Positions 429-18,442 of a DNA stretch of 54,153 nucleotides are shown here, piece after piece. Source of the DNA: a virus (taxonomy: Duplodnaviria; Caudoviricetes); the IMG/VR virus record IMGVR_UViG_3300049893_001743, positions 1 to 54,153 of that record. One strand, written 5' to 3'. The stretch's first letter is position 1. Each line of letters begins with the position of its first letter. The position numbers and the translations under genes are program-made. Under the pieces are notes generated by a model, which did no database searches, was not told the DNA's origin, and saw nothing but the letters and a program-made list of their open reading frames with translations.

Positions 429-818
429 ATGTATATATCAGTCAAAGAGTGGGCAAGGAATGTGTTGAATAGGGCAGGAATAGAGTACGAATACGGAGAA
501 GATGGTTTTACTAAGATGCTCAATACCTATCTCACAATCAGGCGGTTAGCTAAGAAACATCACAGGTTAGCGGAGTATTCATGTAATGGTGAGGGCGTGG
601 TAGGAGGTAGATTCTGGAGATTAGACAATCCTAGCGCGTTCTCATTGGACAAGGATGGGTGCGAAGTTGATGTGTTTGACATTGAGAGTGAGCGTATAGA
701 GGCGAAGATAAAGGCGCTGTGCGACAAGGTGGGCTTTAGGGTGGAGTTTCAAGGAGATCCTAGGGGTAATACGGTTAAGCTGTCTTACAATGGGAAGTTT
801 GTATCAATTAACGCTTAA
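429..818 (+). CDS. Hypothetical early protein
   Basis: 129-aa ORF with strong SD AAGGAGG, first gene after the promoter. Confidence 0.8.
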   Translation: MYISVKEWARNVLNRAGIEYEYGEDGFTKMLNTYLTIRRLAKKHHRLAEYSCNGEGVVGGRFWRLDNPSAFSLDKDGCEVDVFDIESERIEAKIKALCDKVGFRVEFQGDPRGNTVKLSYNGKFVSINA

Positions 819-837
819 TAATAGGGAGGGGATTAAT

Positions 838-993
838 ATGCTAAAGATAACTAAGAAGTTCTTAGAAGGAAATCTTGAAGGAGAAACATATACATTTAAA
901 ACTTATCAGCCGTTTGAATTAGGCAAGATATACAGCGATTGTATTACTGGTAAAAAATATGAAATTGTCGCCGTTGAAAGGATAACTGATTAA
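838..993 (+). CDS. Hypothetical protein (start moved to MLKITKK)
   Basis: GGGAGG SD upstream of ATG 838; stop overlaps next start (TAATG). Confidence 0.65.
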   Translation: MLKITKKFLEGNLEGETYTFKTYQPFELGKIYSDCITGKKYEIVAVERITD

Positions 994-1259
994 TGAATAC
1001 TTACCCTGCCTTCCCAGTATTGCCTAATGGAAATAATAACGTAGATAACTATGGATTCAAGATCTTTGCATATCCTGGTATGACCTTGCTTGATTGGTTC
1101 GCAGGTAAAGCTTTGCAAGGTCTATTATCTGCGCCTAGCGACACAATAAGCCAAGATAGCGGACCTAATGCTAGAGCTAACCCAGCTAAGGCGTCAGAAT
1201 GGGCTTATCAGCAAGCGGAAGCCATGTTGAAATATCGGGAGAATATTAAATGGACATAA
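993..1259 (+). CDS. Conserved phage hypothetical protein (GMTLRDYFA-type motif)
   Basis: PAFP...GMTLLDWFAGKALQGLLS motif, common in phage early regions. Confidence 0.75.
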   Translation: MNTYPAFPVLPNGNNNVDNYGFKIFAYPGMTLLDWFAGKALQGLLSAPSDTISQDSGPNARANPAKASEWAYQQAEAMLKYRENIKWT

Positions 1260-1711
1260 TGAAAATCTTACTACTAATAGCCCTACTCATGGGAGGGATA
1301 GAGGGAAGCGCATGTGCTAGTGAGGTTCTGATTGGGGATGCTGAGATAGTGCTTCAGACATTGGCTATGGAGTCCGCAAGCCATCCAGAGGGTATGCCGT
1401 ATGTAGCATTAACGCTCTACAATAGGGCTCTAATGCGTAATACGAGTATGTCTGAGGAGGCACTTAGAGCTAAACAGTATAGTTGCTGGAATAGCCAGAA
1501 ATGGGCTTATTCCTGGCTTTCTAGGCACTATACAGCATCAGTACAGGCTCAGGCGGTATCAAGCCTAGCCTTGGGGCTGGAAATGGCTAGAAATGGCATG
1601 TATAAGGGCATGAGACACTATCACACGATCAATACTAGCCCATATTGGGCGAAGGGGCATACGCCAGCTCTGATACTTGGCGGGCATAAGTGGTATGAGG
1701 GGATAAAATGA
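1250..1711 (+). CDS. SleB/CwlJ-like cell wall hydrolase (Hydrolase_2) with N-terminal hydrophobic segment
   Basis: LAMES (catalytic Glu), VALTLYNR, QYSCWN, HYH..SPYW, LGGHKWY motifs. Confidence 0.8.
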   Translation: MDIMKILLLIALLMGGIEGSACASEVLIGDAEIVLQTLAMESASHPEGMPYVALTLYNRALMRNTSMSEEALRAKQYSCWNSQKWAYSWLSRHYTASVQAQAVSSLALGLEMARNGMYKGMRHYHTINTSPYWAKGHTPALILGGHKWYEGIK

Positions 1712-1968
1712 GCGAACTAACAAAAGTAATTATATTTGAGCTAAAGAATAAACTTAGAAAGGCCACCCATTGCACTATTCAACATGATGGGTGGACGTGT
1801 GCAACGTGTTTTTTTAATCTCAGTAAATCACTAAATAACAAAGACTGGCAAGCCGTGTTATTGACCCGTGGAGATTACAAAAAAAGCGAACTGGATAATC
1901 TACCAAAGGACATTGAAGTATCAATAGAAAAGATACTTAAAATAATAAAGGGGATGAAGCAGATATGA
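1708..1968 (+). CDS. Hypothetical protein
   Basis: 86-aa ORF, ATGA overlap with upstream gene. Confidence 0.7.
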   Translation: MSELTKVIIFELKNKLRKATHCTIQHDGWTCATCFFNLSKSLNNKDWQAVLLTRGDYKKSELDNLPKDIEVSIEKILKIIKGMKQI

Positions 1969-2159
1969 GTGAACCATATGAGCCATGGCCAAGCGGGCCA
2001 TTCAGATGCCCATACTGTAAGGCAGAAGGGCAAGAAGCGGAGGATCTAGGGGATCATCCGGCATACCTAAGCGGGACTTGTGAAGAGTGTGGCAAGGACT
2101 TCTCGGTTAATACGTATCTGATGGAGTTCTATGATAATAAGGGGGATGTAATCAAGTGA
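1965..2159 (+). CDS. Zn-ribbon protein
   Basis: CPYC...CEEC; ATGA overlap. Confidence 0.7.
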   Translation: MSEPYEPWPSGPFRCPYCKAEGQEAEDLGDHPAYLSGTCEECGKDFSVNTYLMEFYDNKGDVIK

Positions 2160-2311
2160 GCGCCTACTATGTGCCTCGCTACAAATGGGAGCTTGTGGCG
2201 TGGCTTAGTCAGAACGGCATCAGAATGCCGAGCAAGGCTCCTAAGAGGCAGTTGTATGCGATCTATCACAGGATAATGAATGAGAGGATAAGCCATGGAT
2301 CAATTAGGTAG
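2156..2311 (+). CDS. Small hypothetical protein (51 aa, not in ORF track)
   Basis: GTGA overlap; translates MSAYYVPRYKWELVAWLSQ...; fills the gap in the operon. Confidence 0.6.
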   Translation: MSAYYVPRYKWELVAWLSQNGIRMPSKAPKRQLYAIYHRIMNERISHGSIR

Positions 2312-2552
2312 TGCCCAATGGGACTATGACAACATGGAGCCAAAGGACAGGCGCTCTGAGGGCGTCATAGAGTACCAGGATAGATCTACTCCCACGGAGC
2401 AGAAAGAGATATGCCTGGATTACCTGGAGCAGAAGAACCTCATGGCGGACTTTGAGGCCTGGTGGGACGAGCTAAGCGTCAAGGGCGCTTGGCTCGATGA
2501 TGTTGTGGCGTACTGTGAGGAAAGGGTGGACTTCTGGGACTGGCTGGAATAA
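2295..2552 (+). CDS. Acidic hypothetical protein
   Basis: 85-aa ORF, GAGG SD, rich in D/E/W. Confidence 0.7.
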   Translation: MDQLGSAQWDYDNMEPKDRRSEGVIEYQDRSTPTEQKEICLDYLEQKNLMADFEAWWDELSVKGAWLDDVVAYCEERVDFWDWLE

Positions 2553-2563
2553 CGGGGGAACAT

Positions 2564-3292
2564 ATGAGTAAATTATTATCAGATTATCTTTACTACCATG
2601 AGCCGGGACCACCAGATCTTAAGATTTACCACGGGAATTGTTTGGAGATTATGCCTCTACTCGACAAGGTGGACTTGGTGGTTATTGACCCGCCGTATGA
2701 GTTATCTGATTCAGGGCCAGGTAAATCCCATTGCAGGATGAGCCTCAATAAGTTTGACTCGGAATCTTACAAAGAAATAGTTACCGGATTTAATCACCAA
2801 AAAACATTTGGAATGATCGAATCTATTTGTAAGCCAATGCATCTATTCTGCTTCTGCTCTAACAAGCAAATATCAAAATTCATGCTTTATGGAGAATTAA
2901 AAGATTACCCGACAACTCTCCTTATTTGGAATAAAACAAATTCAGCCCCATTTGCGAACGGTGTTTGGCGTGGGGATGCTGAGTATTGCGTTCATATCAG
3001 AAAGCGTGGTGCTTATTTTGAGGGAAACGCAGAACTAAAAAGAAAGGTGATTCAACATCCAATAGTTTCAGACCAAGCACATCCAACAGAAAAACCTATT
3101 TTAATAATAAAGAAATATATTGAGATTGGTTCTTCTGAGAATATGACTATCCTCGACCCCTTCCTCGGCTCCGGCACAACCCTAGTCGCTTGTAAGGAAC
3201 TCAAGAGGAACGGTATTGGCATAGAGATTAACGAGAAGTATTGCGAGATAGCTAAAAAGCGTTTACAGAACACCCAAGTCCCATTCATTTAA
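2564..3292 (+). CDS. N6-adenine/N4-cytosine DNA methyltransferase, beta class
   Basis: DPPY motif IV precedes HPTEKP and DPFLGSGTT motif I. Confidence 0.92.
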   Translation: MSKLLSDYLYYHEPGPPDLKIYHGNCLEIMPLLDKVDLVVIDPPYELSDSGPGKSHCRMSLNKFDSESYKEIVTGFNHQKTFGMIESICKPMHLFCFCSNKQISKFMLYGELKDYPTTLLIWNKTNSAPFANGVWRGDAEYCVHIRKRGAYFEGNAELKRKVIQHPIVSDQAHPTEKPILIIKKYIEIGSSENMTILDPFLGSGTTLVACKELKRNGIGIEINEKYCEIAKKRLQNTQVPFI

Positions 3293-3313
3293 ACAGAGGA
3301 GGAGTAATAATCT

Positions 3314-3484
3314 ATGAATAGCATCAATGAGCTAAAGGTCTACGGACGGGCAGAGAAGATCAAGGGGATCCTTGAGTACATGTTGGATAGCGGCAAGAAG
3401 ATACCCTCTAAACAGCTATTAGAGGCCCATAGGAAGCTCGGAGAGGCCTTATACGCCCTCCAGGGTGAGCGGAGGGATAGATAG
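3314..3484 (+). CDS. Small hypothetical protein (56 aa, not in ORF track)
   Basis: GGAGGAG SD; MNSINELKVYGRAEKIKG... Confidence 0.65.
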   Translation: MNSINELKVYGRAEKIKGILEYMLDSGKKIPSKQLLEAHRKLGEALYALQGERRDR

Positions 3485-3523
3485 CTCTAATAGGCCTTAA
3501 AACGAATTTAAACAGGGGTTCTC

Positions 3524-3733
3524 ATGTCACCTAAGATAATCATGGATCAATTCAAGGATATTCAGCTATCTAGGCAAAGACGCCACCAGTTGAGGAAGCA
3601 ATTAGCCGGCTACTGTGCCAAGTGTATCAAGCCCAGGGTAGGATCAAAGTACTGTGAGTACCACATGTATCAGGAAGCCAAGTACCAACAGATTAGGCGG
3701 TATCGTAGGAAGAATGAGTTATCAAGCTCATGA
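3524..3733 (+). CDS. Basic Zn-binding hypothetical protein
   Basis: CAKC...CEYH motif, R/K rich. Confidence 0.7.
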   Translation: MSPKIIMDQFKDIQLSRQRRHQLRKQLAGYCAKCIKPRVGSKYCEYHMYQEAKYQQIRRYRRKNELSSS

Positions 3734-3907
3734 CCTCAAGTTCCTCAAATACCATCAGTACCAAAGGCATGGAAACTCGTTTGGTACTTGGCCCACGAAT
3801 AAGCGAGCTTTGGGGGGCTGAAAGCGCCCCCATAGCTTATTCTGGCCAAGTTGTCAAATACCAAGCTATATATATTAGTGTACTTGAGGTATTTGAGGTA
3901 TTTGAGG
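3734..3907. repeat. Putative replication origin: inverted arrays of 9-bp iterons flanking a long hairpin and an AT tract
   Basis: CCTCAAGTT-CCTCAAATA-CCATCAGTA (3734-3760) versus TACTTGAGG-TATTTGAGG-TATTTGAGG (3881-3907); imperfect palindrome ~3780-3858; CTATATATATTAG 3866-3878; directly 3' of the helicase gene. Confidence 0.6.
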
Positions 3908-3919
3908 ATTTTAATAGAC

Positions 3920-4873
3920 TTAATACAGAGATACTAGACTATACTTGCCTTCAGGGGTAATCTTGATTATTTTGGTACTTGAGAGCATATTTTTGATATC
4001 GAATGCCTTTTGCCTGTTATGAGACAAAAGCTCTCCGTTTGCCGCCGTCATTGCGGCTATGAATTCATTCATTGGGACCTTTGATCCATTCTTACTTGAA
4101 AGATAGTTTTCGGCCCATTCGCCTATGATGGTAACAGGATTATGCCAGTCGAATGACTTTGTGTCCTTGTTATACTTAATAACACGCTTTATAGCCTCAT
4201 CAGAATTACGAGTCTCAATGGCTAGTTCACGGTATTCTGTAGGTGTACGTCCTTCCATAGCTATGGTAGTAGAAGCCCATCCACGCATAGAGGTTGACCC
4301 ACGAATCATATCAAGTAATGAGGTTTTTTGCTTTGGGTCTCCCTGCTTCTTAAAGTGTTGAGCCATGATGACTGAAAAATTGAAGCGATCCTTTAGTATG
4401 TCTATCTCTCGGAAGAAATTAGCCATCTCGGTAGCGTTGTTTTCATTATACTTATGAAAGTTAATCATAGGGTCTATTTCAAGGACATCTGGCTTGAACT
4501 CATCACATTCTTGGGCTATAAGATTTGAATCACGTCCAAATATGACTTGGTTCTTTGTTGCCCATGTGCGTGAGTTACGCAAAAACTCCTCTTTCATCCC
4601 TGTATATGTAGGTGCAAGACGTTCTTTTAGACGAGCCTCACGCAATTCGGCCTGCAAGGATAATACCTTAAGTGGACGAACAACCTTGTATCCTAAAAAG
4701 TTACCGCCAGTTAGCAAGGCTCTTCGGATGTCATTTAGAAGAGTTGTTTTTCCTCCCTTTGACTCACACCCAACGAGCATTGTATCCCCACGAGAAAGCA
4801 TACCGCCTTCTATGAAGATTTCTTCAGGCCATTCTGTGTTAAGAAGTTCGTAATAAGATATGGAGTGAGACAT
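3920..4873 (-). CDS. RecA-fold RepA/AAA_25 family helicase/replication protein
   Basis: Walker A CESKGGKT, Walker B VLEIDP, HFKK..IRGST motif; no primase domain. Confidence 0.85.
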   Translation of the reverse strand: MSHSISYYELLNTEWPEEIFIEGGMLSRGDTMLVGCESKGGKTTLLNDIRRALLTGGNFLGYKVVRPLKVLSLQAELREARLKERLAPTYTGMKEEFLRNSRTWATKNQVIFGRDSNLIAQECDEFKPDVLEIDPMINFHKYNENNATEMANFFREIDILKDRFNFSVIMAQHFKKQGDPKQKTSLLDMIRGSTSMRGWASTTIAMEGRTPTEYRELAIETRNSDEAIKRVIKYNKDTKSFDWHNPVTIIGEWAENYLSSKNGSKVPMNEFIAAMTAANGELLSHNRQKAFDIKNMLSSTKIIKITPEGKYSLVSLY

Positions 4874-4884
4874 ATTGTTTGGCT

Positions 4885-4913
4885 ATATTAAAGGATGCGA
4901 ATTATCTTGTCAA
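4885..4913 (-). promoter_or_regulatory. Sigma70-type promoter for the helicase
   Basis: Minus-strand TTGACA (4913-4908), 17 nt, TAATAT (4890-4885); ATG at 4873 with no SD. Confidence 0.65.
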
Positions 4914-4954
4914 TGATATTCTTAAATTATTTATTGGACGGATAGAAAAAGTAT

Positions 4955-4983
4955 TTGACAAAGGTATATTAAAGAGGCATAAT
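4955..4983 (+). promoter_or_regulatory. Sigma70-type promoter for the HTH/recombination operon
   Basis: TTGACA (4955-4960), 17 nt, CATAAT (4978-4983), followed by AAGGAG SD. Confidence 0.75.
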
Positions 4984-5007
4984 AGTGGCATATTTAAGGA
5001 GAGCAAT

Positions 5008-5205
5008 TTGATTATTGCAACTAATGATTTGAAAAAATATCTTTCACTGTTTGCGACTCAAAAAGATGCTTGTGATCATCTTGAGATGGATGCCGCAACT
5101 CTATCAAAGATGGCTAATGGGCATGATGTGTCATCCTCTACCATTGCAAAGGTTTTGGAGAAAACGGGTTTTGACTTTGAGAAAGCATTTGAGGTGAAGG
5201 AATGA
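5008..5205 (+). CDS. Cro/XRE-like HTH regulator (TTG start, 65 aa)
   Basis: TQKDACDHLEMDAATLSKMANG helix-turn-helix pattern; AAGGAG SD before TTG 5008. Confidence 0.75.
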   Translation: MIIATNDLKKYLSLFATQKDACDHLEMDAATLSKMANGHDVSSSTIAKVLEKTGFDFEKAFEVKE

Positions 5206-5381
5206 TTCACCATTACCTGCGTTGTCCTCATTGCGAGAGTAAGTGGTTATTCAGCTACGATATTCCGTCTATGATATTCAACTTTTGGCGTGTGATGGCT
5301 GAGAAGGCGTATGTGGAGATGGAGTTTGCGAACCATCAGGTGGACTGTATTTTGGCGGAGGTAGAACATGAACACGTATGA
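5202..5381 (+). CDS. Small Zn-ribbon-like protein (59 aa, not in ORF track)
   Basis: ATGA overlap; MIHHYLRCPHCESKW... Confidence 0.55.
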   Translation: MIHHYLRCPHCESKWLFSYDIPSMIFNFWRVMAEKAYVEMEFANHQVDCILAEVEHEHV

Positions 5382-5513
5382 GGCGTTATTACAGAAGGCA
5401 AATGATGTGCTTGTAGAGCTTGGTATGTGTGAGGAAGGTCAAAGATTGCCTAAGATAGAGGCTATGTTCGTGGATGGGTTTTTGCAAGTTCAGAGGGAGA
5501 GAGAGTACGCTCT

Positions 5514-6368
5514 GTGAATCAAATTAAGTTCGATAACTCAAGTCTGCAGGCGTTCAAGGATTGTCCAGAGAGGTATCGCCTAAAGTATGTCCTTGGCCTT
5601 AAGAAGCGTGAGGAAGGTATCGAGAATCATGATATCAACTTCGGTAAGGCTATCCATAAAGGACTTGAGGCACATTATAAAGGTAAGGATTACAGGGAAG
5701 CTTTCACGTCTGAGTATGGTATTCAGTTGGATATCGAGGACAAGGCCAAGACATACGAGCATGGTCTACTTCTATTAGATAAGTACATAGAGTTCTATAA
5801 TGAACAGGATAAGCTGTTTGAGATCCTGGAAGTAGAGCAACCTGACCTAATAAAGGTAGGCGAGTTCGACTTTATCGTGAAGCGTGACATGGTCATAAAG
5901 CAACAGGGATGTATCTATGTCCTTGAGCATAAGACTACAAAGAAGTCGCTTAACTCGTGGGATTACTGGGGTCAATTTGAGCCAAATAGTCAGGTTACCG
6001 CACAGACGTACTCGTGCATGAAGAAGTACGGAGAATGCAGTGGGGTCATAATCAATGCCATGCAGGTGGGATTTAGGGAGAGAGCCTACAAGGGTGAGCC
6101 GGCGGGGTTCCACTGCTCGTTTCAGAGACAGATGTTCAATAGAACCAAGGAGCAGTGTGGGGACTGGTACGAGCAACACATAGAGTGGTTAGAGAGGCTA
6201 CGAGATAACAAGGAATTTGTTCCTAACTCTACCTGGCTCAAAAATGAGGGTCAATGCAGATATTGTAATATGAAAGAGATCTGTAACTCGCTTGCTGACG
6301 AGCAGATAATCGAGCAACTCTATGAGCGGCTTGATAATCCATTCAGCTATCTGGAGACAGAGGTATGA
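5514..6368 (+). CDS. PD-(D/E)XK Cas4/RecB-like exonuclease
   Basis: SSL..FKDCP, FGKAIHKGLE, D..EHKTT, Q..Y, C-terminal CRYC..KEIC (four Fe-S cysteines). Confidence 0.85.
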   Translation: MNQIKFDNSSLQAFKDCPERYRLKYVLGLKKREEGIENHDINFGKAIHKGLEAHYKGKDYREAFTSEYGIQLDIEDKAKTYEHGLLLLDKYIEFYNEQDKLFEILEVEQPDLIKVGEFDFIVKRDMVIKQQGCIYVLEHKTTKKSLNSWDYWGQFEPNSQVTAQTYSCMKKYGECSGVIINAMQVGFRERAYKGEPAGFHCSFQRQMFNRTKEQCGDWYEQHIEWLERLRDNKEFVPNSTWLKNEGQCRYCNMKEICNSLADEQIIEQLYERLDNPFSYLETEV

Positions 6369-7138
6369 GGTATACCGTAGACGAACTACAGAAGCCTGAC
6401 GTGCGTACATTCGTCAAGTTTCTAGTAAACGGTGGGCCTGGAACAGGGAAGAGCTATCACGGATTGACCTATCCTAAGGTTGCGTGGCTTGTGAACGAAC
6501 CTGGATGGAGAGCCTTGATCGAGTCTAATCCTGAACTTAAGGCTAACCTGGCTTGGGTGGAGGAGTTTATTCCAAGCCCGAATGAGGACGTAAAGTCTGT
6601 GATGACTCGCTTAGATACTGCTATTAAGCAGGCCCATGCGGACTTCAAGGAAGGTAAGGTCGATACGCTGTTCTTTGATAATATCTCGTTCCATGCAGAG
6701 AATCGGTGGCTCTATATCAATCAGTTCGAGCCAGTGAGAGCTATGAATGGGGCGTTAGATACGAGAGGAATGTATGGCGTATTAAGTAGGTATCTATATA
6801 AGTTTACTTATATGGATATATTGAGCTTCCCAGGAAATGTCGTGGTGTCGTGCCATGAACAGACCGAGGATGAGTCTGCTATGCAGAATAAGATAGATAA
6901 GAGTATGACCGTGGCTCCTGCCATCCTTGGAGGTTTCAGGGATAAGATCGCAGGGATGTTCACGGCATCTGTCTATCTTGAGAAGCGTAGGAAGGCAGAG
7001 AACACGTACGAGTACTGGGCAAGATGTCAGAAGGGGTCAAATAGGGATGCGAAGAATAGGTGCGGTTTACCTGAGCTTATTCAGAATGTGTCCTATAAGA
7101 CCATCATGGAGTACGTAACCAAACACAAGGTGAAATAG
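6365..7138 (+). CDS. AAA_24/Sak4-like ATPase (single-strand annealing protein)
   Basis: GGPGTGKS Walker A, LFFDN Walker B, VVSCHE, AKNR motif; lies between nuclease and SSB-like gene. Confidence 0.8.
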   Translation: MRYTVDELQKPDVRTFVKFLVNGGPGTGKSYHGLTYPKVAWLVNEPGWRALIESNPELKANLAWVEEFIPSPNEDVKSVMTRLDTAIKQAHADFKEGKVDTLFFDNISFHAENRWLYINQFEPVRAMNGALDTRGMYGVLSRYLYKFTYMDILSFPGNVVVSCHEQTEDESAMQNKIDKSMTVAPAILGGFRDKIAGMFTASVYLEKRRKAENTYEYWARCQKGSNRDAKNRCGLPELIQNVSYKTIMEYVTKHKVK

Positions 7139-7143
7139 GAGGA

Positions 7144-7725
7144 GTGGAGATGTTTGATGTCAATGACCAGATAGATGTGGTGGATCTAACAGACGTTAAG
7201 AAGGAGAGTATGGTGCTTCCTCCTTCCAAGAACGTCAAGGTGCGTATCGTCAAAACGGAGAAGTCTCCGAGGGTATTGACGAACGAGAACACCGAGAAGG
7301 GCAAGAAGGGGGACATTAAGTCTCTTGGATTATCCCTTGAGATAGCGGATGGAATTCCGACCACGAACGTTGAGACGGGAGAGGAGACGTTGAAGTTCAA
7401 GGGCATGAAGCTAAACACTGGCATCATGGACCTGATCGTGTGGGCAGACCTGGAAGTGTCCAACAAGAAGGGTGTCAAGAGATTAGACAATAAATGGTGG
7501 AAGAATAAGCAACATCTCGTAGGACTGAAACAGTTCTGCGTAGCGTTGGATATTCCTCTGGCAGGCCTTAAGGTCACGGATGCGTTCCTATCCGAGCTTA
7601 TCGGAAGGGAGCTTCTGATCGATATCGGGCAAGAAGAGGAAACGGTTGAGAACCCTCAAACGGGTGAGTACGTCAAGACTGGTACGATGAAGAATCGCAT
7701 CCAGGCGTTTAAGAAAGTCTCGTAA
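7144..7725 (+). CDS. DUF669-like single-stranded DNA-binding protein
   Basis: Position after Sak4-like gene; LKQFCVALDI..LIGREL..I..E..KNRI pattern. Confidence 0.6.
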   Translation: MEMFDVNDQIDVVDLTDVKKESMVLPPSKNVKVRIVKTEKSPRVLTNENTEKGKKGDIKSLGLSLEIADGIPTTNVETGEETLKFKGMKLNTGIMDLIVWADLEVSNKKGVKRLDNKWWKNKQHLVGLKQFCVALDIPLAGLKVTDAFLSELIGRELLIDIGQEEETVENPQTGEYVKTGTMKNRIQAFKKVS

Positions 7726-8138
7726 TGGAACAGGCTCAGGTGGTGGAGAAGCCGTATGGGATCGCTTTTAAACTGCCTGAGCCACCTCCATCTGTTAATA
7801 GTTTGTATAACGTCATATTCAGTTTAAAGAAGGTGGAGCTTAAGAACGAGGTCAAGCTGTGGAAGTCCAAGATGAAGTTGTATGTGCCTGTGTGGAGACC
7901 TAAGGTGGTTCCTGATTCACCTTGGATGTATTTTAGGATGGACGTACATATGGATCTATTCCATAAGAACGGTAAAGTAGCCAAGTTTGATGTTATGAAC
8001 ATGGAGAAGGCGTGTATAGATATGGTGTGTGAGAAGATCGGGATAGATGACAAGTTTATATCTGAGTGTCATACGAGGAAGATCCAGTCTGAGAATGAGT
8101 ATGTAATGTGTGAGATAGGATACTTAAGTCATGTCTGA
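7725..8138 (+). CDS. rusA: RusA-like Holliday junction resolvase
   Basis: PPPSVNSLY and DVMNMEK..ID....IDDKFI catalytic motif. Confidence 0.8.
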   Translation: MEQAQVVEKPYGIAFKLPEPPPSVNSLYNVIFSLKKVELKNEVKLWKSKMKLYVPVWRPKVVPDSPWMYFRMDVHMDLFHKNGKVAKFDVMNMEKACIDMVCEKIGIDDKFISECHTRKIQSENEYVMCEIGYLSHV

Positions 8139-8192
8139 GCATGAGGTATACATGAGATTGTATGGGTGGGCGTTGAGGATCAATAAAATTTA

Positions 8193-8313
8193 AACCTTCG
8201 CCGTAAGGCGGGTTGATGGTGGGCTGGTACCCTGACGATGAGGTGGCGTATATCGCTTCGGAGAAACAGCTTTGACTGGAGTATCCTTCGTTGCAGACCA
8301 ACTGCCCATCAAC
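8193..8313 (+). ncRNA. Putative structured RNA with a hammerhead-like core
   Basis: GTAA-loop hairpin 8193-8214; GTTGATGG/CCATCAAC closing stem; CTGACGA (8232-8238), stem, GAAAC (8263-8267). Confidence 0.35.
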
Positions 8314-8354
8314 AAAGATTGTAAGGGAATTGTAAGATTTGTGTGAGGCAAGAA

Positions 8355-8432
8355 TGGTTAGATGGTTGCTGAAACAAGCTGTGCTAGTGCAACCCAGCAT
8401 AGTGCTGAGAAGGTTAGAATCCTTCCTAACCA
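8355..8432 (+). ncRNA. tRNA-like element 1 (78 nt)
   Basis: 7-bp TGGTTAG/CTAACCA stem next to a GAAGG-TTAGAAT-CCTTC T-arm; D and anticodon arms non-canonical. Confidence 0.5.
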
Positions 8433-8497
8433 CTCGTCTATCGAACGGTGTTTCTTTCTGACGAGAAAGATAGGCATGAGTTTATGTAAGACAAGAA

Positions 8498-8643
8498 TGG
8501 CTAGGCCAGCGTGTCAGGGCTGGTGGTAAGAGACAGATGGAATTGACGGCTCGACATTACTACGATGAGTTTCTGACTATAGCTTATTGGAAGTAAACTC
8601 GCGAAGTCCGTCAAGGAGCGGGGTGGGGAATCCCGCCTAGCCA
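8498..8643 (+). ncRNA. tRNA-like element 2 (146 nt, expanded central arm)
   Basis: TGGCTAG/CTAGCCA stem, GCGGG/CCCGC arm, CCAGC/GCTGG arm, TTGACGG/CCGTCAA long arm; same CAAGAA leader as element 1. Confidence 0.45.
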
Positions 8644-8683
8644 GGGAAAATCCCACACAGCCAATCAACTAGAGGGGAATAAT

Positions 8684-8818
8684 ATGGTTAATTCTGAATC
8701 TATTGAGCTAGTCCTATATCGGTGGAGGAACAATTACTACGGTGCCACAATGAAATCCAATGATGACAATGCGGTTAAAGCCATTCGTGAATTATTTGAC
8801 CATGCCAAACATGAATAA
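8684..8818 (+). CDS. Small hypothetical protein (44 aa, not in ORF track)
   Basis: GAGGGG SD; MVNSESIELVLYRWRNN... Confidence 0.5.
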   Translation: MVNSESIELVLYRWRNNYYGATMKSNDDNAVKAIRELFDHAKHE

Positions 8819-9023
8819 GCTGTATAAGCCGAGTCTATTAGTAGAAATTGACAATCAGTATTATATGCCAGAGAGTTTAGAAGCTGTCACTGAATGGTGG
8901 CTCCGAAACTATCCTATCTGCGTCTGCAAGATGGCGAACAAACCGAAGGAGTGGCTAAGAGTCAGGAAATTCATGGAGAAACTGTATCTTGACATCCGTC
9001 AAATCAAAAGGAAAAAGAAATGA
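8811..9023 (+). CDS. Hypothetical protein (start moved to MNKLYK)
   Basis: Start overlaps upstream stop; ATGA overlap downstream. Confidence 0.6.
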   Translation: MNKLYKPSLLVEIDNQYYMPESLEAVTEWWLRNYPICVCKMANKPKEWLRVRKFMEKLYLDIRQIKRKKK

Positions 9024-9271
9024 ATAAGCTGGATGACTGCGGGTGTTATATTCATCCTAATTCTCTGGACAGGATTCTTCATAGTATGCAGACATCTGGG
9101 CTTGGGCGTGAAGAACAACGTGGTAAAGCCCGATTCGCAATAGTGAAGATGGTGAGGGGGATGATGCCTGACAGATTAAAGGCAAGTGTTAGTGATGATT
9201 ACTATGACCTTGGTTGGAATGAATGTCTCGACACCATCGAAGCTAAGCTGAAGGATCTTGAGAATGGCTAA
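9020..9271 (+). CDS. Hypothetical protein
   Basis: GWNECLD motif typical of small phage proteins. Confidence 0.65.
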   Translation: MNKLDDCGCYIHPNSLDRILHSMQTSGLGREEQRGKARFAIVKMVRGMMPDRLKASVSDDYYDLGWNECLDTIEAKLKDLENG

Positions 9272-9650
9272 GCCAAAGAAGCAGAGGAAACATAGACATA
9301 TATACAATATCTGTGCCTGTTGCCAGGTAGAACGTTATGGATATTGTGGCTGTTCGTTTGCTGAACAAATGTGTGAGTGCGGGGAAAGGAAGCCATGACA
9401 GACATTCAATGGAGCTTAATTGGCCTTGTCATTGTCGGGAATATTATTTTCTTTTGGCTAGGAACTCAGTTTGAGGCTTATAAGAGGAGTAAGGAGTGAC
9501 CGACATTCAGAAGCAGATTGAAGTGGTGAGAAGTCGTCTTGAATATATAACAGACAGGTTTACTGGCCTAAAAGGTTTTGAGGAGGCATTGGAAGCCCTC
9601 TCAAGAATCGAATCCTACATCAAGAGTTTGGAAGCGAAGGAGGGGAAGGG

Positions 9651-9914
9651 ATGAGAGTTGACATTAAAGATGTAGAGGTGTCCGAGTCTTTCCACGAAAT
9701 TTCTCCATGCGATTATGGGGATTGTAAAAAACCTAGCCCATACATAATTTGGCCTGACAGTTTATTTCCTGGAAATACTTATGCTTGTAATGAACACGTT
9801 AATCATTTGTGGGCTGGCAGAAGGCATCTAGGAGTTCATTTTTCTATTGGGTATAAAATTTCAGCGATTCAGCAAAGATTGAATGAATATAAATTAATGG
9901 AGGCCAAAAGATGA
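9651..9914 (+). CDS. Hypothetical Cys/His-containing protein
   Basis: GGAGG SD; CDYGDC..CNEH. Confidence 0.65.
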   Translation: MRVDIKDVEVSESFHEISPCDYGDCKKPSPYIIWPDSLFPGNTYACNEHVNHLWAGRRHLGVHFSIGYKISAIQQRLNEYKLMEAKR

Positions 9915-10306
9915 AGTCGAATAAGGAGATAGCAAGAAAGGTAGCCGATAGCGACAAGTGCTATTGTGAAGCCGCTGTTGCTTACGAGGCACGAGTTGAC
10001 AAGTGTGAATACTGTCAAGTCATCGAAGCCCTTGACGCAAAGGATGTCCAAATTAAGGAGTTGGAGAAGCGGGTGGAGGAACTTAACGAACAGATTAAAA
10101 GACTTTGTTCGCCGATTTACAAAGACACTTCCACAGAACTTGTTTTATGTCAATCCCGCCTCAAAGATGCCGAGAAGATGCGTAAGGCATTAAATGAGAT
10201 AAAAAACCTTGATGTAGTTGGTGCTGATAATACAGGAAATCTTTACTTTGGAAAGATTGGTTGTATAGCACAACAAGCCCTAGCCGAATGGGAGAAGGGG
10301 AAATGA
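9911..10306 (+). CDS. Hypothetical coiled-coil protein
   Basis: 131-aa ORF, heptad-like segment, ATGA overlap. Confidence 0.7.
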   Translation: MKSNKEIARKVADSDKCYCEAAVAYEARVDKCEYCQVIEALDAKDVQIKELEKRVEELNEQIKRLCSPIYKDTSTELVLCQSRLKDAEKMRKALNEIKNLDVVGADNTGNLYFGKIGCIAQQALAEWEKGK

Positions 10307-10575
10307 GACACGAACCTGAATGTCGTTGGGAAAAGACCACACCTTATGAATGTGAGTTTAGAAATACGCATCATTATTGTCCGCATCCTGAACACGGATG
10401 CACTTGTGAGCTTGTAGAATGTGCTACTAAAGCAACCGCAATTCTGACAGCCATCAGAAACGCCGAGGTTGGAAGTGACATAATCGTAAACAATGATGAT
10501 GGAAGCATATTCTGTATCTTAACTGTTAAATGCAAGGAGCATCCAGAAACCATTGGAGAAGGGGAAGGAGAATAA
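10303..10575 (+). CDS. Hypothetical Cys/His-rich protein (start MRHEPEC)
   Basis: ATGA overlap at 10303; purine-rich SD. Confidence 0.6.
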   Translation: MRHEPECRWEKTTPYECEFRNTHHYCPHPEHGCTCELVECATKATAILTAIRNAEVGSDIIVNNDDGSIFCILTVKCKEHPETIGEGEGE

Positions 10576-11225
10576 GTGAAGACGTTAGAGCTATTTTCTG
10601 GAACAAAGAGCTTTAGTCGGGTAGCGGCCAAACTTGGGCATCAAACGCTCACAATAGATAATAACGCTTCTTTGAATCCTGATATTTGTTGTGATATTTT
10701 GTCTATTCCTTTAAGCAATTTACCAACAGGAAATGATATTATTTGGGCCTCTCCACCATGTACAGCGTTCTCAGTTGCTTCTATTGGAACACACTGGGCT
10801 GGTGGATCGAGGGCATATATCCCAAAGACAGACTCGGCACGAATCGGTATAAAACTTGTGGAGAGAACGATATGGCTGATTGAAGTGTTGAAACCGAAAT
10901 GGTGGTTTATCGAAAACCCAAGAGGTGTCTTGAGGAAGATGCCTTTCATGCAAAATTTCAAGCGTGTCACAGTTACATACTGCCAATACGGTGATGAACG
11001 TATGAAGCCAACTGATATATGGACAAACGCATACTGGTGGGAACCGAAGTCTCTCTGTAAGAACGGTGATCCCTGTCATGTCAAAGCTCCTAGAGGGTCA
11101 AAGACTGGAACGCAAGGATTAAAAGGAGCTATGGAGCGTGGGGCTATACCACCAAATTTATTTATAGAAATATTTGAACAGATTCCAAAACAATTTTCAT
11201 TAATGGAGAAGGGGAAGGAGAATAA
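10554..11225 (+). repeat. 22-bp direct repeats bracketing the C5-MTase gene
   Basis: TGGAGAAGGGGAAGGAGAATAA at 10554-10575 and 11204-11225; partial GGAGAAGGGGAA at 10291-10302. Confidence 0.9.
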
Positions 11226-11229
11226 ATGA
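10576..11229 (+). CDS. Short phage-type C5-cytosine DNA methyltransferase
   Basis: LELFSG motif I, WASPPC motif IV, IENP motif VI, YCQYG..KPT. Confidence 0.85.
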   Translation: MKTLELFSGTKSFSRVAAKLGHQTLTIDNNASLNPDICCDILSIPLSNLPTGNDIIWASPPCTAFSVASIGTHWAGGSRAYIPKTDSARIGIKLVERTIWLIEVLKPKWWFIENPRGVLRKMPFMQNFKRVTVTYCQYGDERMKPTDIWTNAYWWEPKSLCKNGDPCHVKAPRGSKTGTQGLKGAMERGAIPPNLFIEIFEQIPKQFSLMEKGKENK

Positions 11230-11594
11230 GCCGAGATAATGAGGCGCGTATTTATTCAGATTTACAAGATGCTAAGGATGCTCTTAGGAAAGCTCTTAAA
11301 GATATAAAGGAATTAGATGACAAGCTCGGGGGATATAATACTTTTAGTGGAGAGGTAGCTCCGATTATAGACGAGATATTCCCAGGAGAATTGGAAGGAA
11401 AATAAATGAGGTATCAAAGGGAGTCTAAATGAACGACTACGATCTATTTGACTGGTTGATGGCAATAGATGGAGGGCGCTCATGATACTAACCCTGGCAA
11501 TATACGGCTTAGGGGTATCCCTTGCAGTATTAATACTCGCCTCTATTGCCATAGCAATACTCAGTAAGACGGACTGGTGGATGGGGAAAGAATA

Positions 11595-11825
11595 ATGGAT
11601 AGCTTATTTGATCCTAGTAACATAAAAATATCCTCTGGAATAAAACCTCCAAAGAACCGTGGTTGGGCTAAGAATCTAATGTTATCTATGAAAGTAGGAG
11701 AACACGTGGATCTCCCAGACCCGTTCAAATGCCAATCAGTCTACTCTGCCGCTAAGACGCTTAAGTATAAGGTTAGATGGATTTGTGTTAATAGTAACAA
11801 GTATAGGCTTTGGAGGATTAAATGA
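11595..11825 (+). CDS. Small basic phage protein, probably DNA-binding
   Basis: GIKPP..MKVGE...YRLWRIK pattern. Confidence 0.6.
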   Translation: MDSLFDPSNIKISSGIKPPKNRGWAKNLMLSMKVGEHVDLPDPFKCQSVYSAAKTLKYKVRWICVNSNKYRLWRIK

Positions 11826-11841
11826 GCGAGAAAGAGTGTAA

Positions 11842-12879
11842 ATGAAATATCTATTTCCATTAAGCCCATGGAATCAGCAACGTCAGTTTGAGAAGCCGGC
11901 ATGGGTATACCCTGCTCATCTTGCCATGTATGCTACACATCTGAGAGATCGTGGCCATGAAATCCTATGGGGCCTTACGGTAGATAAGGTGGATAGAGTA
12001 ATCTATGATGATACTCAGATTAATATTCCGTTTGAGAATCTTCCTTTTCCAGATAGAACGCTTACAGACGCCAAGAATCCTCGTTGGCAAGCCTATGGTA
12101 ATTACAAGTTTCATCCTGCTACCCATTACATGTCTTCTAACCTCTGTTGGTGGGCCGGCGCTAAGGGATGCATATTCTGTGTAGATTCTAGGAAGATTAT
12201 AGGGGGTGAGAAACGTGGAGTGCGTTCAGTTGCACATGTCATGTCTGAAATAGAGAATTGTGTATCACTTGGATTCAAGGAGATGTTTGATGATGCAGGC
12301 ACAATTCCCATTAATGATTGGTTGGAGGAATTATGCGAGCAAATGATTCTAAGCGGTCTAAGCAAAAGAATTGTCCTTGGATGCAATATGAAACCAATCC
12401 GTCAGAACTTCTCACTTATGCGGGAAGCGGGTTTCAGATTCATTCTAGTAGGAGTCGAGTCAGCAAATCAAAGCACCATAGACAAAATCCAAAAGGGTCA
12501 GCACTGCGAAAAGGTTATTGAGAATATCAAGTCTATGTCTGATGCAGGCCTTGAGCCGCATGTTACCTCCATGTTTGGGTATCCATGGGAGACTCACGAG
12601 GATGAGATGAGGACGGTAAGATTGGTCCAATTTCTCCTTAGGAAGGGTTATGCTAAGACAGCCCAGGCCTCAGTTTATTCTCCTCCAAGAACTCAGCCAG
12701 ATCCTCTCTCTACCGGTCATAAGTATATCCCAATGATCTATAACGCTTATATGCATCCTGAATTCTGGCTCAATAAGCTAAAAAGTGTACGTAAATGGGA
12801 AGATGTAACTTACATGGCAAGGGGTGGAAGGTTGATACTTGAGGAGAAGATAAGAAAGCTATGCATAAGAAAAAAATAA
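11842..12879 (+). CDS. Radical SAM enzyme resembling B12-binding family, with atypical CX7CX2C motif
   Basis: CWWAGAKGCIFC, LPFPDR, RSVAHVMSEI, GVESANQ..IDKIQKG, MFGYPWET. Confidence 0.85.
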   Translation: MKYLFPLSPWNQQRQFEKPAWVYPAHLAMYATHLRDRGHEILWGLTVDKVDRVIYDDTQINIPFENLPFPDRTLTDAKNPRWQAYGNYKFHPATHYMSSNLCWWAGAKGCIFCVDSRKIIGGEKRGVRSVAHVMSEIENCVSLGFKEMFDDAGTIPINDWLEELCEQMILSGLSKRIVLGCNMKPIRQNFSLMREAGFRFILVGVESANQSTIDKIQKGQHCEKVIENIKSMSDAGLEPHVTSMFGYPWETHEDEMRTVRLVQFLLRKGYAKTAQASVYSPPRTQPDPLSTGHKYIPMIYNAYMHPEFWLNKLKSVRKWEDVTYMARGGRLILEEKIRKLCIRKK

Positions 12880-12982
12880 GCTTAAATTATCTTGGGTTTG
12901 GTAATGGAAATCAATTCAGGGGAAAGATATTTAAGGAGGATATAGTTAAGCTTCAGTTAAAAGGCCTGTGCAATGAAGCTAT

Positions 12983-13750
12983 TCAGCACTCACCGAGCTT
13001 TAAACGCTTCTTAAGAGAAAATATGAACCCACGGGCAAAGAGTGATGGAAAACGATCCGCCAGCCACTGGTGAACACTATCTGGTATTAGACGTAAGATT
13101 CCACCCACCCATTCCTGTCGGCTACCACAGGCTGTCGGGGAGATATAGTATTTTTCCTCGCAAATGTAGAACAGCTTGGACACGAGGCTTCGGGCTTGTT
13201 TTAAATTCGGAAGGTGTAAGTGTTTCCCTGATCCTGAAAAACAATCAGAATCAACTATTCCACAAAGACATCTTAGCCTGTGAAAGATCGTGGTTTCGTT
13301 TGGTACAGAGACAACTAGCACGCCATCATCAGATAGGCTCTTGGAAATCGATACGAGAACGTCTTGTGGATCAATTAAATGCTCTAGTGTCTCAAGACAA
13401 AGGCAAGCATTACAGGAGATTGGCTCAAAGCCATGATTTAAGTCTACTACCTTTGTCTCGTGGTGATAGGGGGCGCTATCAAGTCCAATATACCGAACAC
13501 TTTTCGGAAAGTACTTCCTTGCCTCGTGCGTGAAGCATCCTACATCAAGCACTGTATCTGAGTCCTTAAGATAAGGTAGGAGCATCCTAGCAGATTTCAT
13601 TACACGATCCCTGGCATATTTGTCCCTGCGATACATCTGGTGCCATGGAGTATTATCCGTGGAGGCCGATGCGGATGTACTTGGCAAACCTTTGGGTATA
13701 ATAGCCTCTAGGTGTCCTACGAGAAATAATAGGCCATAGAATATCTTCAT
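12983..13750 (-). CDS. Class I SAM-dependent methyltransferase
   Basis: VLDVGC, YIGLD, CLETLEHL..P, VVSVPN. Confidence 0.85.
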   Translation of the reverse strand: MKIFYGLLFLVGHLEAIIPKGLPSTSASASTDNTPWHQMYRRDKYARDRVMKSARMLLPYLKDSDTVLDVGCFTHEARKYFPKSVRYIGLDSAPYHHETKVVDLNHGFEPISCNACLCLETLEHLIDPQDVLVSISKSLSDDGVLVVSVPNETTIFHRLRCLCGIVDSDCFSGSGKHLHLPNLKQARSLVSKLFYICEEKYYISPTACGSRQEWVGGILRLIPDSVHQWLADRFPSLFARGFIFSLKKRLKLGEC

Positions 13751-16153: not shown

Positions 16154-16947
16154 ACGCCATTATATTCTCTTCTCATATGTGAATCCCGAATAGAGCGTAA
16201 CCTATCAGAACTCCAATAATCATGGATATTGTAGCTACTAGAATATACTCCAGAAGATTCGACTCCTTTTGGGTCATTGCAACAGATCGTAATTTCACCA
16301 TTCCATCGGATGGCAGGTGCAAGCCATAAGTGGTAGCATGGATATCTATCGGCCCCAGATTTTTCATCCAATCCCCATTTGGCTGTGTCAATGTATCCTC
16401 CATAATTATGTAAATGCTTTACTTCCTTTTGGAACCCTTCCCATTTCTCAATCTCCCCTTCTGGCGTTTCTTCAATGAGGAACCGGATGAGTCCGATACG
16501 CTTAAGTAGAGATAGGGTGAAGTCATCGAAGTTGTTTTTTCTCCAACTCCATATGATCTTATCAACGTGTAGTTCAGAAAGTTCCCTGGAAAATTTATTA
16601 AGAAGAGTTCCATTAGTCGTAAGAAGGACCGTATTTCTTCTGTTCGCTTGCTTAATATACCTGATTGCGTCAAGTATTCTGGGATAGAGCAGGGGTTCTC
16701 CGAAGAGATGGAGTGAGAAGCTTCTTGGTCCGTAGTGCTTGGCTTCATCGATGATGGAGGTAAAGAGGGAGAAGTCCATGTCCTCTTTCCTATTTTCCCT
16801 TGGGCAAAATTCACATGATAGGTTGCAGTTTGCGGTGGTTTCGATAAAGAGGTGTCTTGGGAACTCATAGTCTATCCAGTTCTGTGCGAGGATTTTGTAT
16901 AACCATGATGGCAGGCTCCTTGAGAATGAGGCGTATTTAGTTAACAA
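16108..16947 (-). CDS. Radical SAM enzyme with SPASM/twitch domain
   Basis: CNLSCEFC, GEPLL, TTNG, C-terminal CYHLW..ICCND..CKGC. Confidence 0.9.
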   Translation of the reverse strand: MLTKYASFSRSLPSWLYKILAQNWIDYEFPRHLFIETTANCNLSCEFCPRENRKEDMDFSLFTSIIDEAKHYGPRSFSLHLFGEPLLYPRILDAIRYIKQANRRNTVLLTTNGTLLNKFSRELSELHVDKIIWSWRKNNFDDFTLSLLKRIGLIRFLIEETPEGEIEKWEGFQKEVKHLHNYGGYIDTAKWGLDEKSGADRYPCYHLWLAPAIRWNGEITICCNDPKGVESSGVYSSSYNIHDYWSSDRLRSIRDSHMRREYNGVCKGCTSWQAYPSIF

Positions 16948-18442
16948 GTTCTACAGCAGACTCAGGTTTGGCACTAGAGGCTATGCCAGTTTTAGTCCTT
17001 AGACCCCACGAATCACGTATCTTAGACTCTGGCGTAAGGGTCATCTTAAGGAGAGACAGTCCTGCAGAGGCATATCTCTTAAACTGCCCTGGATTCTTCA
17101 CCTCAAGGACTCTATCGAAGACGAACTTTGGGTTAAGATAAAACTTCCCATAGAACCATCTAAGATGGGACTCAAGTTCATTGCGTGTATATATCTGGTC
17201 CCATAGAGGAGGCCTGAAGTCATCATTGATACGATTTGCATAATCACGCCACGGATCACCCACAATAACGCCTTCCTGTAAGGCTCGTAGATATATCTGG
17301 GTAGCTGGAAATGGTGATAGGATGGTCATCTGCATAAAGTCAGGCTTGATGCGCTTAGATAGACGTAGCGTATCCTTGACATCATCTAGAGTCTCAGTGG
17401 GATTACCCATCATAAAGTAAGCAAGCGTCTTAATCTTGTACCTCTTACACAGATCAAATGCCTTCTCTACCTGCTCAATGGAGGTCCCCTTATTAAGCTC
17501 CCTTACGACACGTGGATTGCCTGTCTCAACACCGAAATGGATGCGCTCACAGCCAGCCTCCTTCATGTTCTTAAGAAGGGCCTCATTGACCACATTTACC
17601 CTTGTGCGTACGTCCCACTTTATCTTAATTCCCCTTCTCTTAATCTCATCACATATCTCATTAACACGCTTCATGCTCACAGAGAACGTATCATCATAGA
17701 AGAAGACTTCCTTAATGCCGTTATCTTGGCACCACTGCATCTCATCTGCGACACGGTTGGCGTTCATAGCACGAAATCCCTTACCAAGGGCCGGCCTATC
17801 ACAATAAGCGCATGAGAAAGGACATCCCCTGGAGGAGAAAGCTGTGGTAGTGGGAGTATCCTCAGATAATACAGAATAATACTTATCTATATTTGTAAGC
17901 TCTCTTGCAGGGAAGGGTAGCTCATTTAGATCCTGAATGAAGCTGACCTGCCTATAGGTACGCCTCTCAATGGATGCCGTAGTATCGATTTTCCCATTAG
18001 CGATATCCTGAGCTAATGTATCCAGTGTTATCTCTCCCTCACCGACTATGACGTAATCCGCTCCTAGCCCATTAGGATTGAAGCACTCGTTAGGATAGAT
18101 TGCTGTATGAGGTCCACCTATAACCACTGGTGCTGAAGTACGCTTCCTTAACTCCTGCATGACCAGTTTGCAGTCCACCAGGGTAAACGTCATGGCAGTC
18201 AGACCTATGAGGTCTGGCTTTAAATCTGCCGCTATCTGAGCTACCTCAGGATGGTTCCACCCCTCTGCTTGGCAATCCAGTACATGCATATCGTATCCCT
18301 TATTCTTAAGGTAAGAGGCGATATAGAGTAGTCCAAGCGGAGGATACACGCCCTGCTGATCCTTAATAATTACAGGGTCATTTCCGACTAGTTCATATGT
18401 ATTAGGTACGTTTATTAGTACTATACGCATTAGTGTCTCCAA
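16937..18442 (-). CDS. Cobalamin-binding radical SAM enzyme (class B methyltransferase-like)
   Basis: PPLGLLYIAS, VIGGPH, GEGE B12-binding domain; SRGCPFSCAYC; GVETG. Confidence 0.92.
   Translation of the reverse strand: METLMRIVLINVPNTYELVGNDPVIIKDQQGVYPPLGLLYIASYLKNKGYDMHVLDCQAEGWNHPEVAQIAADLKPDLIGLTAMTFTLVDCKLVMQELRKRTSAPVVIGGPHTAIYPNECFNPNGLGADYVIVGEGEITLDTLAQDIANGKIDTTASIERRTYRQVSFIQDLNELPFPARELTNIDKYYSVLSEDTPTTTAFSSRGCPFSCAYCDRPALGKGFRAMNANRVADEMQWCQDNGIKEVFFYDDTFSVSMKRVNEICDEIKRRGIKIKWDVRTRVNVVNEALLKNMKEAGCERIHFGVETGNPRVVRELNKGTSIEQVEKAFDLCKRYKIKTLAYFMMGNPTETLDDVKDTLRLSKRIKPDFMQMTILSPFPATQIYLRALQEGVIVGDPWRDYANRINDDFRPPLWDQIYTRNELESHLRWFYGKFYLNPKFVFDRVLEVKNPGQFKRYASAGLSLLKMTLTPESKIRDSWGLRTKTGIASSAKPESAVELVN

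Follow-up and report, generated by a model that had tools for sequence, protein, structure and literature searches.

A candidate family of structured phage RNAs and two of its putative members in the early gene arm of a Caudoviricetes genome

A non-coding gap in the early gene arm

The window analysed here, 54,153 bp long, is a complete virus record. On the + strand, positions 429-13,073 are taken up by early genes and by genes for recombination and methylases, and structural genes follow at 13-54 kb on the - strand, with the terminase gene at 52656-54098 within this structural arm. The + strand genes include those for a PDDEXK nuclease (5514-6368), an AAA_24 protein (6365-7138), an uncharacterised protein here called g7150 (7150-7725) and a RusA-like protein (7725-8138), and there are two DNA methyltransferase genes in this arm, at 2651-3292 and 10576-11229 (+). 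Among the genes of the - arm we also noted one (16937-18442, -) for a 501-aa protein with B12-binding and radical SAM domains (E 1e-25 and 2.5e-27). No other non-coding stretch of the + arm is as long as the gap at 8139-8683, which houses two structured elements, E1 and E2; the next start codon in the window lies 41 nt downstream of E2. Searches for DNA similarity to known phages gave nothing for this gap, and for the wider region 5000-12900 the matches were confined to methylase and AAA pieces.

The smaller element, E1 (8355..8432, +), is 78 nt long and is closed by a helix, P1, in which TGGTTAG at 8355-8361 pairs with CTAACCA at 8426-8432. The 5' strand of P1 is followed by the linker AU, an arm GGUUGC/GCAACC (8364-8369 with 8389-8394, +), a small hairpin with a 5-bp stem and a 3-nt loop (8395-8407, +) and a 3' hairpin GAAGG-UUAGAAU-CCUUC (8409-8425, +) that abuts the 3' strand of P1. 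A spacer that holds a weak hairpin (8433..8480, +) separates E1 from the leader of the second element, and the stretch 8433-8497 does not fold significantly better than shuffled sequence (z -1.24). The second element, E2 (8498..8643, +), is 146 nt long, and its P1 is formed by TGGCTAG at 8498-8504 and CTAGCCA at 8637-8643. Within this helix are a hairpin P2 (8505-8510 with 8519-8524, +), a junction GGUAAG (8525-8530, +), a variable middle with a long arm at ~8543-8614 (+), the motif AGGAGC (8614-8619, +) and a second hairpin, P4, with the sequence GCGGGGUGGGGAAUCCCGC (8618-8636, +), which can be folded with 5 bp and a 9-nt loop or, alternatively, with 7 bp and a 5-nt loop.

The letters and pairings that an earlier note on this DNA had read from the sequence are all where it placed them, including CAAGAA directly before both elements (8349-8354 and 8492-8497), the two closing helices, and the compensated change from T-A to C-G, which is the sole difference between the 7-bp helices of E1 and E2. 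It had also described a shared leader, and this is longer than was claimed: a direct repeat of 24 nt, 8338-8361 versus 8481-8504, is identical at 20/24 positions with the 5' strand of P1 included, its first 17 nt forming the leaders of E1 (8338..8354, +) and E2 (8481..8497, +). Allowing up to three mismatches, the repeat matches the window twice, against 0.03 matches expected. The note was likewise correct in describing E1 as tRNA-sized, with a loop TTAGAAT and without a canonical anticodon arm, whereas the T-arm-like hairpin that it placed next to both closing helices is found in E1 (5 bp, loop TTAGAAT) and not in E2, where the loop has 5 or 9 nt rather than 7. A promoter reading of the leader was dropped, as there is no good sigma-70 fit and the genome has no further copies of the motif; no single-subunit RNA polymerase was found among the eight large window proteins scanned.

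Both elements fold better than shuffled sequences on the + strand. For E1 the minimum free energy is -27.5 kcal/mol, with z-scores of -3.13 on the + strand and -3.87 on the - strand, and for E2 it is -56.5 kcal/mol, with z-scores of -3.72 and -2.12, respectively. The fold of E1 is strand-neutral, all 28 of its 28 pairs being Watson-Crick with 0 G.U, whereas the + strand of E2 has five G.U pairs, and its fold is 16 kcal/mol better than that of the - strand. A 7-bp helix with an adjacent 5-bp hairpin occurs at five places in the window on both strands, three of them here, and the same bare geometry has 289 occurrences in 2.0 Mb of other loci. Thus the geometry is common, and the case for the elements stands on more than geometry.

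A further unit may precede E1. The stretch 8212..8313 (+), here called E0, has a long-range stem (8212-8228 with 8297-8313), has GGTT(A)GATGGT in common with the start of E1, and is identical to the interior of E2 at 17 of 24 positions in a 24-nt stretch. Its fold is not significant (z -1.18), and in a relative, on a contig of 151 nt, the leader motif stands directly before an E0-like piece. Judging from these similarities, we consider E0 a possible but weak candidate for a third, decayed unit of the series.

Several other readings of the gap were considered. The elements might be small ORFs, and we dropped this reading because of negative codon usage and a lack of relatives: measured on the phage's own usage, the ORFs over the elements score -0.11 and -0.21 bits/codon, compared with positive scores for 13 of the 15 small genes of the phage, and for the ORFs crossing the elements the best PHROG match, with E 0.091, does not pass the cutoff of E 0.001, and tblastn finds nothing similar in phages. 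A tandem-repeat reading was dropped since TRF finds nothing and the three 143-nt units are poorly alignable, and an attC-like reading was dropped on inspection because the order of the core sites is reversed. Matches of the element loops to antisense targets within the phage were at chance level, and a terminator scan found no + strand terminator 3' of the elements. At 8193-8215 there is a hairpin, CCTTCGCCGTAAGGCGGG, which is followed by a T-rich run on the - strand only and which, by its sequence, looks like a terminator acting within the gap on a transcript of the - strand. At 8347-8318, a weak promoter-like site was also noted on the - strand.

Relatives of E2 and their shared architecture

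Relatives were sought through sequence patterns, neighbouring proteins and metagenomes. The 3'-end pattern of E1 had one match in IMG/VR, apparently in coding sequence, and the leader pattern had 107 matches, 0 of them with the element architecture; both sets were discarded as chance. Neither searches of IMG/VR with single proteins (RusA-like, AAA_24 and g7150) nor an AAA_24 search of the genome collection gave relatives. A metagenome scan gave one relative (L121), which is 76% identical over 6559-8126 and is the closest found, but it diverges right after RusA and the contig then stops, so that it is uninformative on E1 and E2. In this contig, RusA is followed not by the non-coding gap but by a small ORF (~1590-1700) whose Cys and His residues come in pairs. 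A DNA sequencing run provided four 151-nt contigs of relatives, none of which covers E1 or E2, and the terminase relatives L003-L010 are without the early module, the elements and tRNAs.

The AAA_24 relatives (alignment A4, 26 of 78 proteins found) led to six IMG/VR loci, four of which have PDDEXK, AAA_24, g7150 and RusA in common with the window. In L144, a 210-nt gap 1.6 kb past RusA contains an element with E2's order of parts, namely a closing helix, a 6-bp hairpin, GGUAAG, a variable middle, an AGGAGC..GUGGG(G)AAUCC.GCC hairpin and the 3' strand of the closing helix. The P1 and P2 sequences are unlike those of E2, and the pairing is compensated. Directly 3' of this element lies a long and nearly perfect hairpin of ~75 nt (9457-9540, +), so the L144 gap likewise has two structured units. 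No element was found within the 6 kb examined in L143 and L145, which have the same gene module. Two other loci have a different non-coding gap at the equivalent place: L146 at 8000-8410 (z -0.44, no ARAGORN call), with a stretch that resembles a class II tRNA D arm, and L147 at 7905-8135 (z -2.15).

A pattern for the 3' block of E2 matched nine stretches of IMG/VR DNA, of which ~4 were estimated to be expected by chance, and these correspond to six distinct loci: L149, L144 (=L150), L151, L152 (=L154, L155, L157), L153 and L156. P1 and P2 are in register in five of the six; the remaining locus, L149, has P2, the junction and P4 and no evident P1. There are two tandem copies in L151, of 104 and 83 nt. 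In the genome collection, a contig of a Desulfobacterales metagenome-assembled genome (MAG), L158, contains a clear member and L170 a possible one, while the remaining P4-pattern matches were set aside as GC-rich or coding and without the architecture, one of them (L159) lying inside a 1087-aa ORF. The architecture of E2 thereby recurs in five other phage contigs and one bacterial MAG contig, and conserved structure in related phages, a prediction of the earlier note, was found for E2. Eight members were compared: E2, L144 (9352-9454), the two copies in L151 (7373-7470 and 7525-7603), L152 (12150-12283), L153 (3189-3296, -), L156 (107-238) and L158 (1559-1702, -).

These members have a closing helix P1 of 7-13 bp that is free in sequence except that its innermost pair is always G-C, and the 5' strand of P1 leads directly into the hairpin P2 (4-7 bp). 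A purine-rich junction, usually GGUAAGG, follows P2; GG(U)AAG(G) or a near form of it is present in 8/8 members and the exact GGUAAG in four. The middle part is very variable in length. It is followed by the 3' block, which consists of AGGAGC and then P4, GCRGGGU-GGGGA-AUCCYGC, running straight into the 3' strand of P1. The P4 of E2 matches the family P4 exactly.

For the comparison of helices, the members were anchored where P4 ends and where P2 begins, and the pairs of P1 and P2 were counted by a script instead of a pair-count tool, because MAFFT misplaced 4/8 of the 5' ends and left the 5' strands out of register; no tool alignment keeps P1 in register. All 56 of 56 inner cells of P1 pair (2 G.U), with 3-4 pair types at 6/7 positions, a figure that is partly built in, since P1 and P2 were picked by complementarity next to fixed anchors. 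When the 3' strands of P1 were exchanged among members in derangement shuffles, the mean paired fraction was 0.50 and the maximum 0.625, and by our estimate the chance that the 200 nt upstream contain a 7-bp match is ~0.19 per member. In P2 there are 3-4 pair types per position and one mismatch, in L153. P4 behaves differently, in that 5/7 pairs never vary, one covaries (AU 3, GC 3, GU 2) and the remaining one is invariably G.U; in each of two members a single cell is unpaired. The claim that structure is kept while sequence changes therefore holds for P1 and P2, which pair in all eight members despite their differing sequences. A covariance model, R2, built from one compact member recovered L151A, L153 and L144 at full length, L156, L158 and L152 with wrong bounds, and of E2 only P4. 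Rfam 15 has no match for the window, L153, L158, L151 or L143-L147.

The position of E1 is less direct. It has the leader, P1 including the innermost G-C pair, and, in a hand alignment, the 3' block GAG..GAAUCC..C in common with E2. It differs from the family in having a 2-nt linker found in E1 only, no GGUAAG junction, and a 5-bp hairpin with the loop UUAGAAU. Compared with P4, its 3' hairpin has two changed pairs, and the second pair is A-U instead of the C-G of the family. The covariance models fail to link the pair, the E1 model missing E2 and R2 missing E1. Based on the leader repeat, P1 and the hand-aligned 3' block, and given that the junction and the long hairpin are absent, we read E1 as a putative diverged and shortened paralogue.

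In 8/8 loci examined, the element and the long ORFs that flank it share a strand. This orientation, together with the invariant G.U pair of P4 and the G.U pairs of E2, argues for an RNA made from the + strand. The members are located in early, replication or recombination modules, and no neighbour gene is conserved across all of them. The element follows RusA in the window, small early genes in L144 and a gene for a Lin1244-like protein in L158; in L149 it has AAA_24 and DUF669 on one side and a family-A DNA polymerase gene on the other, and in L154 it lies near a pyrimidine-dimer glycosylase gene. In L152, a tRNA-Trp(CCA) gene at 12294-12365 (+) begins 8 nt past the element in the same intergenic region (also L154, 5608-5679, -), a position that speaks in favour of a link to tRNA processing. 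The tandem copies in L151, a complete genome with terminal repeats, have an integrase gene on one side and an opposite-strand tRNA 3' fragment on the other. This fragment (7667-7700, -) represents the 3' end of a tRNA or tmRNA, with T arm and acceptor strand, 60 nt past the elements, and is probably the attachment site of that phage.

Comparison with tRNAs and other known RNAs

The earlier note had interpreted both elements as tRNA mimics, and of this interpretation the general shape of the smaller element is what stands. The elements resemble tRNAs (RF00005) in their multi-arm fold, in the terminal closing helix and in the hairpin stacked directly on its 3' strand, and one family member lies beside a tRNA gene. 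E1, with its 78 nt, also has the order and spacing of a tRNA, that is, a 7-bp helix, a 2-nt linker, an arm, an extra arm of 5 bp with a 3-nt loop, 1 nt, and a T-like 5-bp stem with a 7-nt loop closed by G-C and no spacer before the closing helix. Its loop, UUAGAAU, is one position off the common T-loop consensus. In a search for a perfect 7-bp helix abutting a 5-bp stem with a TTNRANN loop, E1 was the sole match in the window, and 2.54 Mb of control strands gave five matches, three of them distinct and one a real tRNA. E1 is also the best sub-threshold ARAGORN candidate of the window.

However, the programs made for the purpose do not recognise a tRNA. ARAGORN at default settings reports 0 tRNA genes in the window, and with relaxed cutoffs E1 is called only at <=93% of the threshold, where calls come at noise frequency: there is a mean of 0.8 calls per shuffled window at 90%, and there are 16 sub-threshold calls per 1.27 Mb of control loci at 92%. 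The forced fit of E1 has a 3-bp D stem, an 8-nt 'anticodon' loop and one mismatch, and in the minimum free energy fold the anticodon region is a single irregular arm of 31 nt without a 5-bp stem and 7-nt loop. The RF00005 model has no match at E<=10 in the whole 54-kb genome, whereas 14/14 control genomes match, so that the Infernal check also fails to bear out the mimic claim. At the gathering score Rfam gives nothing, and cmscan of 8100-8750 at E<=10 gives two junk matches only. Likewise, there is no covariance-model or ARAGORN call for tmRNA (RF00023) in the window. No tRNA gene was called in five terminase relatives. In L145, ARAGORN reports a tRNA-Gln(UUG) in the early operon (10489-10563, +) where Rfam at E<=0.1 reports none.

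Strict mimicry would mean that the elements imitate the acceptor and T arms of tRNA and are processed by RNase P, RNase Z or the CCA-adding enzyme, or divert tRNA-directed nucleases or sensors. The tRNA-Trp gene 8 nt downstream of one member is in line with such a role, as is GGUA within some of the P2 loops, a sequence that the D loops of tRNAs also contain. Yet the family does not carry the features on which the resemblance of E1 depends. With P1 of 7-13 bp, the members do not fit the fixed ruler of a 7-bp acceptor and a 5-bp T arm, the geometry seen in E1. The family hairpin has a loop of 5 or 9 nt and a sequence unlike a T loop, and the 2-nt linker after P1 is restricted to E1. From the sequences compared, the T-loop-like loop is peculiar to E1 and not a family trait. 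tRNAs carry a conserved D-loop GG and U8; the elements have neither, and there is no anticodon arm, which agrees with the earlier statement that they are non-decoding. When tRNA 3' ends with the acceptor sequence of these elements were sought in one genome per bacterial or archaeal species, two of the ten stretches found were in called tRNA genes. We therefore consider strict mimicry rather unlikely. The lesson is that a tRNA-like outline in one sequence is no evidence of mimicry, and the comparative data show another conserved core.

Other non-decoding RNAs offer further points of comparison. The ends of the bacterial Y RNA-like YrlA lie in a Ro-binding stem and not in an acceptor-like helix, and the elements also differ from it in having no Rfam match. 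As described in PMC4201824, YrlA resembles the elements in being a non-decoding RNA with a tRNA-like module that occurs in phages too. RNAC and RNAD of phage T4 are, in the accounts of PMC3014915 and PMC9697503, transcribed from the tRNA region and of unknown roles; compared by description, they resemble E1 and E2 as a pair of phage small RNAs linked to tRNA genes, but the T4 pair is made late (PMC9697503), whereas E1 and E2 lie among early or replication genes. A survey of IMG/VR, the same data source, predicted 8,495 candidate structured RNAs, some of them tRNA-like (PMC10690425). These are similar in being covarying intergenic phage RNAs without known function, although the tRNA-like candidates, as presented there, overlap ARAGORN calls and E1 and E2 do not. 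The E2 family may already be listed among them. A word-based, not sequence-based, search of the literature on tRNA-like phage RNAs and decoys gave no description of the E2-family architecture.

Possible functions of the family

We favor the interpretation, to which we assign a probability of about 0.6, that a conserved family of structured phage RNAs outside Rfam 15 includes E2, with E1 as a paralogue that has diverged and become shorter; the family is apparently unannotated. Under this interpretation the RNA would be transcribed from the + strand within an early or replication-gene transcript, and a stable small RNA, the ends of which may be defined by P1, would be excised from it. In L152, tRNA-processing enzymes could trim the RNA next to the tRNA 8 nt downstream. 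The varying neighbours and the tRNA in L152 are in keeping with a self-contained early RNA trimmed by tRNA-processing enzymes and not with a gene-specific sensor. Selection on the closing helix would have led to the compensated change from T-A to C-G, and the two copies may have arisen by tandem duplication. The invariant P4 and junction could serve as a binding site for a conserved partner, either a host or a phage factor. Their presence in phages that otherwise share little is suggestive of one such partner, or of catalysis. The multi-arm outline would then be tRNA-like in shape, including the T-loop-like 7-nt loop of E1, while the family is presumably neither tRNA nor decoding.

Catalysis would imply a new self-cleaving ribozyme, in which P4 and the junction form the catalytic core, P1 and P2 the scaffold, and cleavage takes place near the end of P1. 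The small invariant core, the free helices and a middle of any length are what one would expect of a ribozyme, and this reading would also account for the tandem copies, which are found in two of the seven phages, and for the tRNA-adjacent position. Furthermore, the family is almost wholly confined to phage contigs, and known small ribozymes are common in phage DNA. Against this, the Rfam ribozyme families (such as hammerhead, twister, hatchet, pistol and HDV-like) give no match at E<=10, a cleavage site cannot be assigned, and the pattern of conservation would suit an RNA that binds a protein or a ligand just as well, so that we hold a ribozyme of this design to be unlikely.

We also considered a cis-acting regulator of the downstream early-operon genes, be it a riboswitch-like sensor, an attenuator or an RNA-polymerase modifier. 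The location within an operon, on the gene strand and shortly before a start codon, is what such a regulator would require, and the closing helix with an invariant junction core is aptamer-like. However, the downstream genes differ among the members, the next gene in L152 being a tRNA, and the region after E2 (8644-8690, z -0.39) forms no terminator and no alternative fold that would sequester the Shine-Dalgarno sequence. A tandem pair with different middles is also unusual for a sensor, and in our view a regulator of this kind is quite improbable.

Still less can be said for a function at the DNA level, in which the folded single-stranded DNA would serve, for instance, as an origin of replication, a site of single-strand initiation or a site of recombination. 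A location among replication and recombination genes would be natural for it, the L151 copies are flanked by an integrase gene and a tRNA 3' fragment, and E1 folds alike on either strand. Yet the invariant G.U of P4 and the G.U pairs in P1, P2 and the arm of E2 become A-C mismatches on the other strand, the orientation is always that of the genes, and no integrase gene was found among the window proteins scanned, all of which makes a DNA element very improbable. That the elements are functionless, decayed relics of phage tRNA genes, of which E1 would keep nothing but a tRNA-like 3' end, is hardly credible given that every helix is intact, that no tRNA gene is called in the window or the five terminase relatives, and that a 19-nt hairpin and the overall architecture persist among phages that have no proteins in common or whose common proteins show 23-51% identity.

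A bolder and rather improbable reading is that the family represents a new functional class of phage RNA, acting either as a self-cleaving ribozyme or as a dedicated decoy or sponge, the invariant 19-nt hairpin and junction of which would capture a conserved host factor at an early stage of infection. Few phage non-coding RNAs have a proven role. In this family, a 19-nt hairpin and a junction are sharply conserved while the helices covary freely, in members down to 83 nt. Together with its occurrence in phages that share few or no proteins, these traits are the marks of an RNA with a specific role, for example in binding or catalysis.
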